Sequence record: NC_054906.1 | Length of the DNA: 64,000 nucleotides | Strand: one strand, 5' to 3' | From: Enterobacteria phage RB18 | In this document: positions 1 through 51,765 of the stretch, one piece after another | Layout: each line of letters opens with the position of its first letter | Numbering within the stretch: position 1 is the stretch's first letter | The notes under the pieces: generated by a model | Databases searched by the model: none | The model's input: the letters and a program-made list of their open reading frames with translations, nothing else | What the model was told of the DNA's origin: nothing | Program-made: the position numbers and the translations under genes

Positions 1-2178
1 TTAGGCCGCAAGGGCCTTCATAGTTTTAGCGATTTGGGAAACTTCATCATCACTTAAAGAACTGCGATATCCGATGAAGTCGGAAACAATACGGAATTTC
101 TTGGTAAACTCAGCAACCATTTTATCACTGTTTTTTGAAGCATTATTTGATAATACATCAAAAAGATTAGTTACTGTCCAGATGTCATGACCGATGGTAT
201 CTTTTCCACCATTAAAATATACACCGCGCAATGAACTAACTATATTAGCGAGTCGTGTATATTCTTCAGAAACTTCATCTGTACTGAAGTACTTCATCAT
301 AAAATCTAGTTCAGGATACTTGATAATTTTATCAATATATCGTTGAGCTGAACTTGAATAACCTACATACTTATCATAATCTACATCATCAAAAGCATCT
401 ACATATAAATCACGCAGAGTTTCAAAAATACATTGGCACTGACCGAGTTCTTTTACCTTTTTCTGCAAAAGCGGACGAATAACATAAAATTCATTAATGC
501 CAATAAGATTAGCCATACGAATCAAAATATTCATAGATGGATGACAAAGAGATGTAGTACCATCCATAGAGAAAATATCAGAACGATGCATATACGCTAC
601 ATACCCAGTAATTTCATCTGCTTCTGATGTGAGCGTAAATAATTCCTCTTTTTCCCAGCGCCCGTCTTTAATTTCAAACTTAAATGCTGTAGCAGCTTTA
701 GGACGAGGAGCTTTACTTTTAACTACCTTTGGAATATAGCTTTTAACTAAAGCTTCAATTTCTGACAAATAATGAATGTTAACTTCATCACTTTCAAACA
801 TCGCCATAATATCAGGAAGCAAATCAATCTGCGATTCTACTTCTGGATTAATAAACAGAAGGCGTTCGTTGTGATGAATATTCAAAGTGTTATTAAATTC
901 ACTATCATCTAACGCATGTGCTAATCCACGGACAATATTAACACGATTTTTAATATTATCAATAACGATATTAATTTTTGTTGCATTAATACCAAACAGA
1001 CGATAACTTGATGCAACGGCTGAAGTTTCATGACTTTGCTTAATGCGCTTCAGTCGAGGGTCAAGATTTACTTCATACACAACTCCTGCATTGCATAACT
1101 TACTATCAGGTTCAAACATGCTTTGCATCTTCTTATATGACAGATTTTTAGTCGTAAATTTGACTGAATTACTAATCATATAATCTCGAGCAGAATACCC
1201 CATCTTCATCAATTCACGATATGTATGACGGGGAGATGTGGATTCTTTAAATCGTTTTACATCTTCATTAAATGCTTTCTCACTGAGTTCTTTAACTCGT
1301 TCAATAATATTTTTACGAGTACGATCATCCAGTGAAAGAGCCTCGCGAGATGGAGCAATATCAAGTGAACCCATTGGAAACTTAATGTAATTCACTTCAT
1401 TGCGAATGCTTAGCCAGTTACGGTCTCTAATAACACCATCGATAGGATAAACAATACCGCCATAGATAGCATATAATCCACCACGATCTGGCCAGTATCT
1501 TTCTGGATTTACGCCATAATAATCATCAAAATCCGGAAAATAATCAATTTCGCGGTCAAGACCATTAATGATAGCCAAATCTTTGAACGGTCGCATGATA
1601 TAAGAAACTTCATAAGCAAAGTTTCTAAAGTCTTTTTCTTCAACTGGAACTACGATTTCAATACCAGTTTTATCATCTGGACCCATTTCTTTTACGAATG
1701 TAGGTTTAATCTGTGGGCCATCACCATCCATGTAAGCTACATAACCACGAATTTCACCTTTATGATACGAAGTAATACTAAACGTATCAGTATAACTAAA
1801 CGGAGATTTAGAACCTAAACCAAATCCGCCAATGAAATCGTTAGATTCAGCTTTAGATGAACTGAAGTATGAATTATACAGTCCAGGAGAATTATCATCA
1901 CCCTGAATATCAAAATCACTCATACCCGGACCAAAATCTCGACAAACAAATCGTGGATCTAATCGTCCTGGAACTTGAATGATAAATTTTTCAGGATTTC
2001 CATTAAGAGCATGGGCATCAATCATGTTGGTAATCAATTCACGGACCACTGCGCGAATCTTGTTTGTATACAAATCAGATGATAGAATTTTAAATACTTT
2101 AGGATTTGCTGCGATGCTAAATGCTTTTGATTTAGAACCATTGCCAAGAATTGTTTCTTTTTCAGTGGTGATAATCAT
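1..2178 (-). CDS. rIIA: RIIA membrane-associated protein (rapid-lysis / Rex-exclusion locus)
   Basis: 725-aa ORF, same length as T4 RIIA; N-terminus [16 protein letters not shown] as recalled for T4; map position next to gene 39. Confidence 0.85.
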
Positions 2179-2417: not shown

Positions 2418-2447
2418 ATTATACCACATCCTTGTGGTAAAGTAAAC
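2418..2447 (-). promoter_or_regulatory. early sigma70-type promoter (GTTTAC-18 nt-TATAAT)
   Basis: minus-strand GTTTAC and TATAAT with 18-nt spacer overlapping the stop of gene 39, upstream of rIIA.1. Confidence 0.55.
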
Positions 2448-4267
2448 TACTGGCTCATCCATTCTTTACGAAGGTCAGCATTATCTCCCATGAGCATTTC
2501 AAAAAGCTCTTTCCAGTTCTCAGGAAGTTTAACAACATCATATACTGGGTTTTGAATCATCTCACGATATTCAGATTTTTCCAAAGAGCCAAGTCCCTTA
2601 ATATAACGGATGCTATGTTTAGGTAGAGCATCTTTGGCACTCTCATATTCAGCGACTGTATAAAACCATTCTTGTTTTTTACCGACCTGAGCGATGATTA
2701 CAGGAGTTTTGACAAAGCGAATTCGTCCTTGCTCAAACAATTCTGGCCAATTACTAAAAAATCCGAGCAGAGAAGGATAAATGCTTCCTAGACCATCATG
2801 GTCAGCATCAGTCATAATAGCAATATTATGATAATTCAAGTTTTCAGCTTTTTCACCAAGAACTAATCCAGTGATTGCGCAAATATCAAATAGTTCTTTA
2901 TTTTTAAGCATATCAGCATATGACATACCCCAACTGTTGAGAACTTTACCACGCAATGGATAACCACCATGAAGTTCTTTATCACGAACATCAATAAGAT
3001 ATCCGATAGCAGAATCACCCTCAGTCAAGAAAAGAGTAGTATCAGCATCTTTACCGCAAAGATTCGCTTTGATATGTTTATGAACCTTAGCTTTAGAAGC
3101 CTTTTTAGCTGCTTTAGTTTCTGCTGCTTTTTCTGCCGCCAATTTACGAGCCAAAGCAGCTTCAATAATCGGCATTAGAATTGCTTCATTATTTAGAATA
3201 GCACGTGAAATCTTTTTAGCATCAAGTTGAATATGACTACGGATTTCACCAAATGGAGAAGTCAAACGCTCTTTAGTTTGAGAATCAAATCGCATGTTTT
3301 TCATATCACGAACAAACATAACGATAGTCAAACATTCTTTGACACGCGCTTTGGTTACATCAATTTTGAACTTACGTTTGATTTGTGGAATAAGGTCTTC
3401 ACAAATATCATCCATAACACAGTCAATGTGATGGCCACCATTCTTAGTATGAATGTTATTGACGTATGTTAATTGACGAAAACCATCTGGTGAACGACCA
3501 ACCGCAATAGAACAATTTTCTTGTTCTTGAACGATAGCATGTTCATCATACTGTCGTGCGTATTTCTTAAAATTACCCTGAACCTTTTTACCATTAAAGG
3601 TAAATTGAATATCAGGATAAACAACAGCAAGTGTCTGGAGACGATCCAGTGTAATGTCAAGATAAACTTGGGACAGCTCATTAGTTTCAAATGACATAAA
3701 ATCAGGAATGAAAGTAACACGAGTTCCTTTCCATTTTCCAGGAATATCTTCCCATGATTTATTTTCCATGCCATTTGAGCAACGAACTACAATATTATTT
3801 TGACCATCGCCAGTTTCACCGACAAACATCACAGAAAAAATGTTTGTCAAACTAGAACCAACACCGTTCATACCGCCAGTGACGCGTTCTTTATCATCAC
3901 CGAAGTTACCACCTGCTTTTGGAATAGTCCATGCGGCAACAGGACCAGGAATTTCTTCACCGGTAGGTGTTTTAACCATCGCTTGTGGAATACCGCGACC
4001 GTTATCTTCAACTGTTACTTGATTGTTTTTAATAGTAACATTAATTTTATTTGCGAATTTAAACTTAGTACGAATACCTTCATCTACTGAGTTATCGATA
4101 ATTTCATCAATAAGCTTAACAAGACCAGGTACATACTGAACACTTTCCCATTTACCAAACAGAAAGCGCTCATGCATTTCATTAGCAGAAGAGCCAATAT
4201 ACATGCCGCTACGCTTTTTGATATGTTCAATATCGCTCAGAATTTTAATTTCATTCTTAATCATCAC
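2447..4267 (-). CDS. 39: DNA topoisomerase II large subunit, unsplit T2-type gp39 (GHKL ATPase + TOPRIM)
   Basis: 606-aa ORF; no separate gene 60 between rIIA.1 and 39; conserved position. Confidence 0.9.
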   Translation of the reverse strand: MMIKNEIKILSDIEHIKKRSGMYIGSSANEMHERFLFGKWESVQYVPGLVKLIDEIIDNSVDEGIRTKFKFANKINVTIKNNQVTVEDNGRGIPQAMVKTPTGEEIPGPVAAWTIPKAGGNFGDDKERVTGGMNGVGSSLTNIFSVMFVGETGDGQNNIVVRCSNGMENKSWEDIPGKWKGTRVTFIPDFMSFETNELSQVYLDITLDRLQTLAVVYPDIQFTFNGKKVQGNFKKYARQYDEHAIVQEQENCSIAVGRSPDGFRQLTYVNNIHTKNGGHHIDCVMDDICEDLIPQIKRKFKIDVTKARVKECLTIVMFVRDMKNMRFDSQTKERLTSPFGEIRSHIQLDAKKISRAILNNEAILMPIIEAALARKLAAEKAAETKAAKKASKAKVHKHIKANLCGKDADTTLFLTEGDSAIGYLIDVRDKELHGGYPLRGKVLNSWGMSYADMLKNKELFDICAITGLVLGEKAENLNYHNIAIMTDADHDGLGSIYPSLLGFFSNWPELFEQGRIRFVKTPVIIAQVGKKQEWFYTVAEYESAKDALPKHSIRYIKGLGSLEKSEYREMIQNPVYDVVKLPENWKELFEMLMGDNADLRKEWMSQ

Positions 4268-15833: not shown

Positions 15834-16351
15834 TAATAGCCTCTGTCTTGACGAGCGAAGTTTTCAGCATTTTTCAGATAATAAAGTTTAAATATTTCTT
15901 CAGCTGACATTCCAAGAGCAATGAATTTATTCATGAAAAAGTGAAATTGATCAATCAGTTCAAATTTAATTTCAAGTTGATCTTCAGGAGATAAATCTTG
16001 AATTTTCTTGGATTGCATTTCAGAATAACGTTTCTTCCAAGGTTTCCATACAGCAGAAGCTTCTTTTTCACCATTACTCATACCACCAAGAGAAGTATAT
16101 AGCTCGCGAGTTTCGTCTGCGATATAATCGTCTTGGTTTCGCAGCCAAGCAAGAACTTCTCCTGCAGTTTCAAGTGAATCAGGATGACGATTTGTTTCTG
16201 GTTTATCATTAGCCAAACGAATCTGTAAATGCCGCTGCATATCAAGCATAACCTGCAGTGGGTCAATATTGTGCATAATATTCTCAGCATATGCACGATT
16301 TGCTTTATCAACACCTTCGATCAAATGAGCACATTCATTAAAGTAAGCCAT
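15833..16351 (-). CDS. 56: dCTP/dUTP pyrophosphatase gp56 (MazG-like)
   Basis: 172 aa from the internal ATG at 16351 (AGGAAA RBS), beginning MAYFNECAHLIEGVDKA like T4 gp56; the track N-terminal extension is rejected. Confidence 0.8.
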   Translation of the reverse strand: MAYFNECAHLIEGVDKANRAYAENIMHNIDPLQVMLDMQRHLQIRLANDKPETNRHPDSLETAGEVLAWLRNQDDYIADETRELYTSLGGMSNGEKEASAVWKPWKKRYSEMQSKKIQDLSPEDQLEIKFELIDQFHFFMNKFIALGMSAEEIFKLYYLKNAENFARQDRGY

Positions 16352-16385
16352 TATTTTTCCTTTCAATTCATGGGTTAGTAGATTA

Positions 16386-16410
16386 ATTATACAATAAATA
16401 TATAAAGCAA
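16386..16410 (-). promoter_or_regulatory. MotA-dependent middle promoter for gene 56
   Basis: minus strand reads TTGCTTTA, 11 nt, TATAAT. Confidence 0.45.
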
Positions 16411-16422
16411 TAAGGAGGACAT

Positions 16423-16623
16423 ATGATACAAAAATTAATGGCACTTGTTAATGCCATAAAAGGTAATAAGAAACGTATAGCTTTTACTATTTCTGCTATG
16501 GTAGGAATTTTACTCTGGAACTTTATTTTATCACCTGTTGCAATTGCACATGGTATTAATATTCCAGTAGTTACTCTTGATACATTCGTAGATTTAGCAT
16601 TTGCTTTAGTTGGGTTAATTTAA
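16423..16623 (+). CDS. candidate plus-strand small hydrophobic membrane protein
   Basis: 66-aa ORF in the 268-bp gap between 61 and 56; AAGGAGG SD 3-4 nt before the ATG; two predicted hydrophobic segments. Confidence 0.3.
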   Translation: MIQKLMALVNAIKGNKKRIAFTISAMVGILLWNFILSPVAIAHGINIPVVTLDTFVDLAFALVGLI

Positions 16624-22687: not shown

Positions 22688-23536
22688 TTAATCAACTGCT
22701 ATCGGATGAATAGCATTAAACTTATGAAATGCTTCTGATTTTTCTTTGCGCGAAACACACATGCGAAGAACCTTTAATGGCTCGTCTTCTTCACCCAACG
22801 ATTTTCGTTTTTCAATATTAGAAGTTTTCCAACGAGCTTGCTCTGGAAACTCTCTATTGATTTGCTCAAGCGCTCTATTATGTTTAGAATTACTGCGAAT
22901 TGAACTGCACCCGCCAGGAGCTTGTGCTTTTCCAGATACAACTAGATATTTGAACAAGGCCAAATGCGGATAACCTTGATTAATTAAATTGAGAAATGCA
23001 TACATATCTTCGCATAAATCAATTTTTCCATACCCAATTTGTTCTGTAGTAAGTTTTCCGAGGTCATACCATGTATTCGTGAATCCATATGAATTTTCAC
23101 GATAATTACCCCAAGATGAAGTAATTTTAAAAATAGGTAGACGAGCATGGCCATGATAATACCCACAATCCATGGCATCCTCAACATATTGAATCAATTC
23201 ATAGAACTGTTCACGAGTCAATTGATTGACTTTATCTACACAACGACGATCATCTCTTTTTCGCATTGAACTCATACGAATAGTAGTATCATCGTCAATC
23301 ATCCAGATTCGTTGACCTGCATACGTATCAGTAATTGCTTTACGAGTACCGGCAATTCCGTTTACATCATCAGGAATAGTTATAATTTTAGCTCTAGACC
23401 CATAGACATCATAATAAGCTTTTTCTTCGTGTTCACGCACTACAATATGAGGTTCATAATCAGTCGGAAACATATCAAGGGCAGAAACTGCCCCGACACG
23501 CTGATAACTTGGAATTACGAATTGAATCATTTCCAC
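22688..23536 (-). CDS. GT-A glycosyltransferase at the beta-gt locus (possibly beta-glucosyl-HMC-alpha-glucosyltransferase type)
   Basis: 282 aa with DXD-type motif IWMIDDDTTI; sits where T4 has the 351-aa beta-gt. Confidence 0.5.
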   Translation of the reverse strand: MEMIQFVIPSYQRVGAVSALDMFPTDYEPHIVVREHEEKAYYDVYGSRAKIITIPDDVNGIAGTRKAITDTYAGQRIWMIDDDTTIRMSSMRKRDDRRCVDKVNQLTREQFYELIQYVEDAMDCGYYHGHARLPIFKITSSWGNYRENSYGFTNTWYDLGKLTTEQIGYGKIDLCEDMYAFLNLINQGYPHLALFKYLVVSGKAQAPGGCSSIRSNSKHNRALEQINREFPEQARWKTSNIEKRKSLGEEDEPLKVLRMCVSRKEKSEAFHKFNAIHPIAVD

Positions 23537-24268
23537 TCACCTTTATAGTCTTTTTTCACAATATGAGTTTCGCCAGTATTCCACCAATGATCAACCAAGT
23601 AAAAATGACGAGAATATACATGAAGACTTCCGACATTCCATATAATAGAACCTGCTTTATACTGACGAGTTGAATCGCCTGCATTCAAATCAGATACTAA
23701 TTTATCTAATACGTATTTTTGCCATGCATAATCATTGCGGAATCCGAAGACCACGTCATTTGAGCGCATGCTTACTACTGCATTGACTTTCTTATCACGA
23801 ATCAGGTACTGTACTGTATTAGTACACATGAAATCTGACATACCATCTTTATTGTAGTCAAACTGCATAGATGGACGAGTATAAATCATGATACCACGTC
23901 GAGAATCAGGATTTTGACCAAGTTCAGCTAAACACATATCATACTGGGCATAGTTATCTTCTGACCAGATAGCCCAACCATAATTCGAGTTAATTTCACC
24001 TTTAGAAGATGCTACTTGTTGCCAAATCTTCGGTGTTTCACCCGGAATATCTTTAACGAACAAGCTCTTAGATTTATACCATTCAAGTTCACGCTGAATG
24101 TATTCATCATTAAGAGCGCCAAAAATAAACGGTTCATCTGCTACAAATGATGCGCCAATAATTTCAATAGTTTTAACACCAGTTTTATCAACTACGAAAT
24201 CTTTTTCTTTTTAATGCAAGCCCCAAATGAAGACGGATTTCTTCAACTGTCATAGAGTCACTAATCAT
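23527..24268 (-). pseudogene. 42: dCMP hydroxymethylase gene 42 with apparent +1 frameshift
   Basis: ATG at 24268 reads MISDSMTVEEIRLHLGLALK then stops; the remaining 178 codons lie in another frame; the shift is in an A5-G-A5 run at about 24208..24212. Confidence 0.65.
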
Positions 24269-40847: not shown

Positions 40848-42661
40848 TGGTGCTTAACCCTATGCATGATTTCTTTATTTTTACCGAGATTAAATCCGCG
40901 TTCGTTAGGATTTCCCAAATAACCACATGTTCTTCTTATTGTGTTCATCTTTTTAGGATCAGTTTCTCCACAAATAGAACAAACAAATCCGTTTTCAGTA
41001 GGAGTCATTTCATGGGTACTTCCACACGTAAAACATTTATCTACTGGCATATTAACACCAAAATAATCTAAATGTTGTGCAGCATAATCCCATACGGCCT
41101 CAAGGCCTTTCAAGTTATTTTTCATATCAGGAAGTTCAACATAAGAAATGTGACCACCTGTCGCAATGAAATGATATGGCGCTTCACGAGAAATCTTTTC
41201 AAACGGAGTAATATTTTCTTCTACTGAAACATGGAAACTGTTAGTGTACCAACCTTTATCGGTAACATCTTTTACGCTTCCATATTTTTCTGTATCGAGT
41301 TTACAGAAGCGATAACAAAGGTTTTCAGCAGGAGTCGAATATAAACTAAAAGCAAATCCAGTTCTTTCAGTCCACTGTTTAAGATGAGCATTCATTTTAG
41401 TTAAAATTTCTCGTCCAATATCACGACCGACAAGAATATTCAATTCGTGAATACCAATGTATCCTAAAGACACTGAACTTCTACCGTTTTTAAATAACTC
41501 AATTATGTCGTCATCAGGTTTAAGACGAACCCCGAATGCACCTTCTTGGTAAAGAATAGGAGCAACAGTAGCTTTAACTCCTTTTAAGGAACTAATTCTA
41601 CACATCAAAGCTTCAAAACATAAATCCATTCGTTCATTAAATAGCTCAACAAATTTCTGTTCATTGAATTGTGTTCCAATATAAGAATCTAACGCGATGC
41701 GAGGAAGATTCAGTGTTACAACACCAAGATTATTACGTCCATCAAGAATTTCATTACCAGTCGAATCTTTCCATACGCTCAAGAAACTACGGCAACCCAT
41801 TGGAGAAACAGGAACAGATGAACCAGTGATAGCTTTATTGTTCTTAGCTGAAATAATATCAGGATACATCCTTTTGCTTGCGCACTCTAGAGCAAGTTGC
41901 TTAATGTCGTAATTCGGATCGTCTTTATAAAGATTAACGCCTTCTTCAACGAACATAACAAGCTTAGGGAAAATAGGAGTTATTCCATCACGACCGAGAC
42001 CTTTAATACGATTTTTCAGAATTGCTTTCTGAATCATTCGTTCAGTCCAGTCAGTTCCCGTACCAAATGTAATTGTTACAAAAGGTGTTTGCCCGTTTGA
42101 ACTAAAGAGAGTATTTACTTCATATTCATAAGCTTGGAATGCATCGTATACGTCTTTTTCTGTTTTAGATTGAGCATAATTCAACGCATCAGCGATTTGC
42201 CATTTTTCTGCATCCTCAATATGTTTTGCATAGGTGCGTTTAACATAAGGAGAAAGTACTTTATCTACATTAGCAAAAGTCGTTCCGCCGTATTGATGGG
42301 AAGCAACCTGTGCAGTAATTTGTGCCATAATTGCAGTAGCAACACCGATTGATTTAGGAGTTTCAATCTGTGCATTACCAAGCTTAAATCCATTCTCAAG
42401 CATTCCTTTTAAATCTACTAAACAACAATTAGTAAATGGAAGAGCAGGGGAATAATCAATATCGTGGAAATGGATAATTCCGCTTTCATGCGCTTTCATA
42501 ATAAAAGACGGGACCATATTTTTGGCAATGTGTTTAGACACAATACCAGCCATAAGGTCCCGTTGAGTTGGAAAAACACGAGAATCTTTATTAGCATTCT
42601 CGTTTAAAAGGTCTTTATTAGTTTTATGAATCAATCCTTCAATTTCTTTTTCAATTGTCAT
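40844..42661 (-). CDS. nrdD: anaerobic ribonucleoside-triphosphate reductase NrdD (glycyl radical enzyme)
   Basis: uninterrupted 605-aa ORF with C-terminal Zn ribbon CFTCGSTHEM...CSICGE. Confidence 0.9.
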   Translation of the reverse strand: MTIEKEIEGLIHKTNKDLLNENANKDSRVFPTQRDLMAGIVSKHIAKNMVPSFIMKAHESGIIHFHDIDYSPALPFTNCCLVDLKGMLENGFKLGNAQIETPKSIGVATAIMAQITAQVASHQYGGTTFANVDKVLSPYVKRTYAKHIEDAEKWQIADALNYAQSKTEKDVYDAFQAYEYEVNTLFSSNGQTPFVTITFGTGTDWTERMIQKAILKNRIKGLGRDGITPIFPKLVMFVEEGVNLYKDDPNYDIKQLALECASKRMYPDIISAKNNKAITGSSVPVSPMGCRSFLSVWKDSTGNEILDGRNNLGVVTLNLPRIALDSYIGTQFNEQKFVELFNERMDLCFEALMCRISSLKGVKATVAPILYQEGAFGVRLKPDDDIIELFKNGRSSVSLGYIGIHELNILVGRDIGREILTKMNAHLKQWTERTGFAFSLYSTPAENLCYRFCKLDTEKYGSVKDVTDKGWYTNSFHVSVEENITPFEKISREAPYHFIATGGHISYVELPDMKNNLKGLEAVWDYAAQHLDYFGVNMPVDKCFTCGSTHEMTPTENGFVCSICGETDPKKMNTIRRTCGYLGNPNERGFNLGKNKEIMHRVKHQ

Positions 42662-43131
42662 TTTAAACTCTTTCTAAGCTGCTTCTTAAATGAAGCTATT
42701 AACTGTGTTTTAGTGTCAGATTCATTATATTCAAATCCTCTTTGAAGCATCTCAGCCATCATTTCCTCTTTTCCTAAACGAGAAAATTCCTTTGATTTAT
42801 CTCCAACGAAGTTAGGGTGAATATTATTTTGGGTGTAATCGGATTTTAAATAAGTAAGTAAATTTTCTAACCATTCAAGATAATCAACACCTTGCCCCTT
42901 TAAGCCAGAACGATTAAATTTATGTTTCATTTGACCTTCTGCGGCATTGCAGAGATTACAAAGCAATCCACGCACCTTTCCTGCTTTTGGTCCATTTAAT
43001 TCATGGTCATGATCAAGATGATTAGCTTGAACATCAGGATTTAGTTCTCGTTGGCAAATTAAGCATTTACCATTTTGTGCATCATAAAATTTCTGTTTTT
43101 CTTCTTTATATAATTTGCCAGTCAATAACAT
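42658..43131 (-). CDS. 49: endonuclease VII gp49 (Holliday junction resolvase)
   Basis: 157 aa as in T4; Cys/His zinc motifs. Confidence 0.85.
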   Translation of the reverse strand: MLLTGKLYKEEKQKFYDAQNGKCLICQRELNPDVQANHLDHDHELNGPKAGKVRGLLCNLCNAAEGQMKHKFNRSGLKGQGVDYLEWLENLLTYLKSDYTQNNIHPNFVGDKSKEFSRLGKEEMMAEMLQRGFEYNESDTKTQLIASFKKQLRKSLK

Positions 43132-51735: not shown

Positions 51736-51765
51736 AACTTTGTGAAAAATTTTTGAAATAAAAAA

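Follow-up and report, generated by a model that had tools for sequence, protein, structure and literature searches.

Organization of the gene 42 locus

The window, by which we mean the whole 64-kb stretch of DNA analysed here, covers the left end of a T4-like (Tequatrovirus) genome. It begins with rIIA, which starts at position 1, and its genes are arranged as in phages RB27 and vB_Eco_Geo. Gene 42 lies on the minus strand in the location that it also has in T4, between imm/42.1 and a glucosyltransferase gene, and the features that bear on its reading are collected in Table 1. The two glucosyltransferase genes and gene 56 are intact, and gp43, 42.1 and imm are likewise full length. By T4 gene order, denB and alc presumably lie outside the 64-kb window.

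Read from the ATG at 24268, gene 42 begins with 20 authentic gp42 codons (MISDSMTVEEIRLHLGLALK) in frame 0, which are followed in the same frame by six out-of-frame codons (RKRFRS) and a premature TGA at 24190..24188. The protein continues (EKDFVVDKTG...KGEWK*) in the +1 frame, between 24207 and the stop codon at 23529..23527, and the codons in the two frames add up to the normal length of the protein (20 + 226 = 246). As written, gene 42 is not a single uninterrupted ORF of ~246 codons, being broken after codon 20. The initial annotation had described a start at 24268 and 20 correct residues before a frame shift and a stop, and this agrees with the sequence. It had also let the gene continue for 178 codons in another frame; the continuation is real, while the number has to be revised, since 226 homologous codons follow the break and 178 is the length of the ORF that opens at the TTG at 24063.

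The break falls at an A5-G-A5 run (local sequence TTAAAAAGAAAAAG), in which the G that separates the two A-runs is position 24207. Alignment with the two closest records, PhiZZ23 and fFiEco06, located the extra A in the first of the runs, where the window has A5 and these phages have A4 and A3G, respectively. An insertion of one base in the A5-G-A5 run, at about 24208..24212, had been proposed before, and the alignment bears this out.

Table 1. Features of the gene 42 locus and of the hydroxymethylcytosine (hmC) pathway in the window
Feature	Coordinates	Strand	Basis
Gene 42, 5' fragment (ATG, 20 gp42 codons, RKRFRS, premature TGA)	24188..24268	-	sequence and ORF list
First A-run, with the extra base: A5 here, against A4 in relatives and A3G in fFiEco06	24208..24212	-	alignment
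Second A-run, A5, same in relatives	24202..24206	-	alignment
Gene 42, remaining 226 codons and stop, with E60, C148 and D179	23527..24207	-	+1 frame relative to the ATG
178-codon ORF that opens at the first TTG (24063)	23527..24063	-	ORF list
Gene 56 (dCTPase), intact, 172 aa, 98% identical to the vB_Eco_Geo homologue	15836..16351	-	
beta-Glucosyl-HMC-alpha-glucosyltransferase, T2/T6 type, intact, 280 aa, downstream of gene 42	22688..23530	-	
alpha-Glucosyltransferase, intact, 400 aa	35134..36336	-	

The stop codon of gene 42 and the ATG of the beta-glucosyl-HMC-alpha-glucosyltransferase gene (23530..23528) overlap in an ATGA at 23527..23530, an arrangement that suggests translational coupling of the two genes. 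With a real frameshift, ribosomes would terminate ~660 nt upstream, and this glucosyltransferase might be translated less as well.

The spacing between gene 56 and gene 61 is only ~270 nt in the window (16352..16619). At this locus vB_Eco_Geo has ~1.4 kb more, part of which is a gene for DNA adenine methyltransferase (dam) together with an adjacent ORF; dam is missing here from the window, as it is from RB27. Gene 39, encoding the topoisomerase large subunit, is a single 606-aa ORF in the window (2447..4267), and RB27 and vB_Eco_Geo have it in the same form; a separate gene 60 is absent, and with it the T4-style translational bypass segment.

The repaired protein and the constraint on gene 42

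Removal of one A turns gene 42 into a 741-nt ORF with a 246-aa product. Records whose gp42 is 100% identical to this repaired protein include fFiEco06, PhiZZ23, ECO4, HP3 and A6-6; these isolates encode it in a single 741-nt ORF with A4 (or A3G) in the first run. At the DNA level, the window and these Tequatrovirus isolates are 98.4-98.9% identical over 1 kb, and the closest phage records to the window regions compared are 96-98.9% identical.

The initial identification of the gene as gene 42 (dCMP hydroxymethylase) was confirmed by comparison with the T4 enzyme. The repaired protein is homologous over its full length to T4 gp42 (deoxycytidylate 5-hydroxymethyltransferase; structures 1B49, 1B5D and 1B5E), a member of the thymidylate synthase superfamily (PF00303). 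Its residues 1-245 align with residues 1-245 of PDB 1B49 at 97% identity (E = 1.3e-165), and it matches PF00303 with 58 bits against a cut-off of 24.3. Glu60, Cys148 and Asp179, the catalytic residues of T4 dCMP hydroxymethylase, are all kept and are identical in the 1B49 alignment. What sets the window apart from T4 gene 42 is the one extra A that, as written, splits the ORF after codon 20.

Gene 42 of the window differs from that of fFiEco06 at seven nucleotides and from that of PhiZZ23 at seven, and in both comparisons all seven differences are synonymous. Only 20% of the possible single changes in the gene are synonymous, and the chance of drawing seven of seven is P ~1e-5. Both substitutions in gene 42 that are private to the window are synonymous as well, and a search for signs of a decaying pseudogene, in the form of non-synonymous changes or of further indels or stops relative to the two closest relatives, found none. 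Judging by this substitution pattern, the gene 42 lineage is under full purifying selection up to the present, and the frameshift would then be either extremely recent or not real.

Absence of the A5 allele from the public sequences searched

The allele was searched for with an 81-nt query centred on the A-run. The stretch is covered by 412 phage records, none of which matches the A5 allele exactly; the best match is 80/81 with one gap. The A5-G-A5 version was also absent from exact-pattern scans of three contig collections (viral_contigs, metagenome_contigs and genome_contigs). With the repaired gp42 as the query, tblastn returned 770 phage records with a homologue, 767 of which cover at least 80% of the protein in one place and 205 of which are at least 99% identical to it. 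When homologue rows were sampled evenly, 60 of 60 were a single uninterrupted piece. Across the sequences searched, the split arrangement of gene 42 is private to the window sequence, and a literature search for frameshifted gene 42 in Tequatroviruses found nothing relevant.

A Logan contig (L007, SRR27242132_11232) that matches the 178-aa ORF was considered as evidence of the frameshift and rejected, as it starts downstream of the A-runs and comes from a different phage. Positions 1..19 of this contig are the Nextera mosaic-end adapter (AGATGTGTATAAGAGACAG), an untrimmed adapter that persists in a public assembly, and its 178-aa gene 42 "product" is merely a 5'-truncated gene.

Quality of the remaining window

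Split genes elsewhere in the window were looked for by tblastn of all minus-strand ORFs of at least 50 aa from vB_Eco_Geo (L003/L004) and RB27 (L005/L006) against the window. Gene 42 was the only conserved gene in the 64 kb found to be split between frames; the remaining cases flagged were ORFs extended upstream, overlapping ORFs that are spurious, and breaks of RB27's own (gene 49 and nrdC.7). DNA alignments with the two relatives contained other odd-length indels and gave no further split genes. Those indels that were checked by hand are intergenic, are compensated pairs in divergent stretches, or are again RB27's own breaks. With no other conserved ORF of at least 50 aa split, a generally error-prone assembly is ruled out, and a single homopolymer error left in 64 kb is nothing unusual.

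Gene 49 (endonuclease VII) of RB27 (L005, KM607000.1; 42471..42943) is annotated as two abutting CDSs and has one C fewer than the window (at about window position 42968) and vB_Eco_Geo, in both of which gene 49 is a single 157-aa ORF (42658..43131 in the window). Single-base breaks in important genes do get into deposited T4-like genomes.

At window position 51763 an A-run is one A shorter than in vB_Eco_Geo (L004, 4815..4964). The difference shifts the frame of a 49-aa hypothetical ORF that is annotated in vB_Eco_Geo and not in RB27, and this region is probably non-coding.

The possibility of a real mutation in gene 42

Phage DNA synthesis fails in T4 with an amber mutation in gene 42, as the dCTP pool is emptied by dCTPase while hm-dCTP is not formed (PMC6071114). 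Because the window encodes an intact dCTPase (gp56), complete loss of gene 42 function should kill the phage, and a propagated phage would not be expected to carry a real null allele. No second gp42-like gene was found in the 64-kb window.

Against this background we consider it unlikely that the insertion is a real and recent mutation, lethal or nearly so, that dominates the sequenced DNA and yet is not viable alone. A-runs are the classic sites of replication-slippage frameshifts in T-even phages, as in the Streisinger model, and the synonymous-only differences from the closest relatives are what an extremely recent inactivation would leave. A lethal allele, however, should not reach a consensus majority. 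A defective genome carried by wild-type helpers at high multiplicity, or a mutation that arose during amplification for the DNA preparation, would be examples of routes by which a non-viable allele might do so, and both are correspondingly doubtful.

Possible expression of a frameshifted gene 42 by slippage

If the insertion is real, the frame is restored only if ribosomes shift by +1 or if the mRNA lacks one of the As. RNA polymerase slippage was rejected as a source of such an mRNA, since the runs in gene 42 are A5 interrupted by G and are too short for it to be appreciable; bacterial RNA polymerase slips on runs of about nine or more. Transcriptional slippage is known from endosymbionts, at long poly(A) runs, and from potyviruses, at GAAAAAA (PMC5009743). 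A functional protein made by re-initiation or from another start codon was rejected as well, since the target frame has no ATG, GTG or TTG before L69 (24063) and a product that starts there lacks E60.

There remains the proposal that a few ribosomes slip +1 in the A-rich stretch and that full-length gp42 arises by unprogrammed, intrinsic suppression. Across the site, frame 0 reads UUA AAA AGA AAA AGA UUU CGU AGU UGA. tRNA-Lys can re-pair perfectly one base downstream on either AAA with AGA in the A site (two consecutive AAA_AGA), and P-site re-pairing is also allowed at UUU_C, so that the P-site re-pairing expected of a +1 shift site is available at AAA_A twice and at UUU_C within the productive window. 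A slip at the first AAA would give wild-type gp42, with the junction LALKEKDF and the peptide GLALKEKDFVVDK, and a slip at the second would give an E21R variant, with the junction LALKRKDF and the peptide GLALKRKDFVVDK. The productive window is, however, just seven codons long, bounded by a target-frame UAA directly 5' (CAU UAA AAA GAA) and by the frame-0 UGA downstream.

With AAA as a slippery P-site codon and, next to it, AGA as an A-site codon that may be slow to decode (AAA_AGA), the site is like the programmed +1 sites of prfB (CUU_UGA_C) and Ty1 (CUU_AGG_C), and there is a formal likeness to Ty1 in particular, in which a slow-to-decode Arg codon drives the +1 shift (PMC5009743). Unlike those sites, that of the window has neither conservation nor a correctly spaced Shine-Dalgarno-like stimulator, and AGA is common in this phage. 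The two-frame arrangement occurs in 0 of the 412 phage records and in none of the three contig collections, and every one of the 60 sampled homologues is in one frame. The distance from a GGGG to the first AAA downstream of it is 9 nt, against the ~3 nt typical of the prfB +1 stimulator, and no significant local RNA structure that might act as a stimulator was found (fold z = -0.93).

AGA is a rare codon in E. coli, but T-even phages encode a tRNA-Arg that reads it, in a tRNA cluster beyond the limits of the window, and AGA makes up 15.5% of the Arg codons in the window genes. In-frame AAA_AGA occurs 13 times in 89 window ORFs, where ~8.6 are expected; the phage does not avoid AAA_AGA, although avoidance would be expected if this motif shifted efficiently. 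We conclude that nothing supports programmed slippage at gene 42.

Unprogrammed suppression has precedents. In E. coli rpoB, a +1-nt frameshift in an essential gene is viable, with 5% spontaneous suppression (Huseby et al. 2020, PMC7022156), and broad unprogrammed frameshift suppression of ~4% has been reported (PMC10861913). Like the rpoB case and the G-run "savior indels" of HSV thymidine kinase (PMC5009743), the window has a one-base insertion in an essential gene near a +1 re-pairing site; those cases, however, were verified by resequencing and proteomics and have a selective rationale in drug resistance, whereas the window allele is known from the deposited sequence alone. At chance sites prone to shifting, typical levels are 0.1-1% (PMC7022156), probably too little for an enzyme of the dNTP-synthesis complex. 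The fact that the window is otherwise free of frame-breaking indels fits a real insertion of this kind; on balance, we nevertheless regard expression of gene 42 through such slippage as very improbable. In a variant of the same proposal, the insertion would perhaps act as a "savior indel", reducing the output of gp42 and hmC where a defence system that detects modified DNA exerts pressure.

It is scarcely credible that gene 42 is truly dead and that the phage DNA contains ordinary cytosine, like that of laboratory T4(C) strains: what speaks for this is the frameshift itself, whereas cytosine-DNA T4 requires the removal of alc, denB, 56 and 42 together (PMC11078745), gene 56 is not inactivated here as it is in a viable cytosine-DNA T-even mutant (42- 56- denB- alc-) and gp56 is instead full length and 98% identical to that of vB_Eco_Geo, both glucosyltransferases, useless without hmC, are intact, and the constraint on gene 42 has not been relaxed.

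A probable homopolymer error

Most probably, the extra base at 24208..24212 is a single-base homopolymer error of the deposited or assembled sequence, introduced in base calling, consensus polishing or assembly. A homopolymer error fits best because the allele is unique, because the gene is otherwise under perfect purifying selection, and because the surrounding hmC pathway is intact; it is further supported by the retention of the catalytic residues, by the lack of a second gp42-like gene in the window, by the fact that an uninterrupted gene 42 is the rule, and by the occurrence of single-base breaks in other deposited T4-like genomes. The main point against an error is that the rest of the window is clean; A5 is also short for such an error on most platforms. 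Of the three options offered in the initial annotation, sequencing error is the one that this analysis favours; recent inactivation loses ground since a null should be lethal with the dCTPase intact, and slippage-dependent expression does so for want of conservation and stimulators.

The error is one that we infer rather than observe. If it is an error, the extra base would not be in the virion DNA, and the real phage would carry gene 42 as one 246-codon ORF encoding a normal dCMP hydroxymethylase.

Were the allele real, it would be a natural case of an essential phage gene expressed via unprogrammed +1 frameshifting, a phage counterpart of the rpoB case, and it would matter for the question of how reliably the phenotype of a frameshifted gene can be predicted from genotype. 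If, as we think probable, the extra A is a homopolymer error, gene 42 in the record needs to be repaired, or to be flagged as disrupted by a probable sequencing error. A label of pseudogene or of two small ORFs would then be wrong, and a T-even phage without hmC should not be inferred from this sequence.
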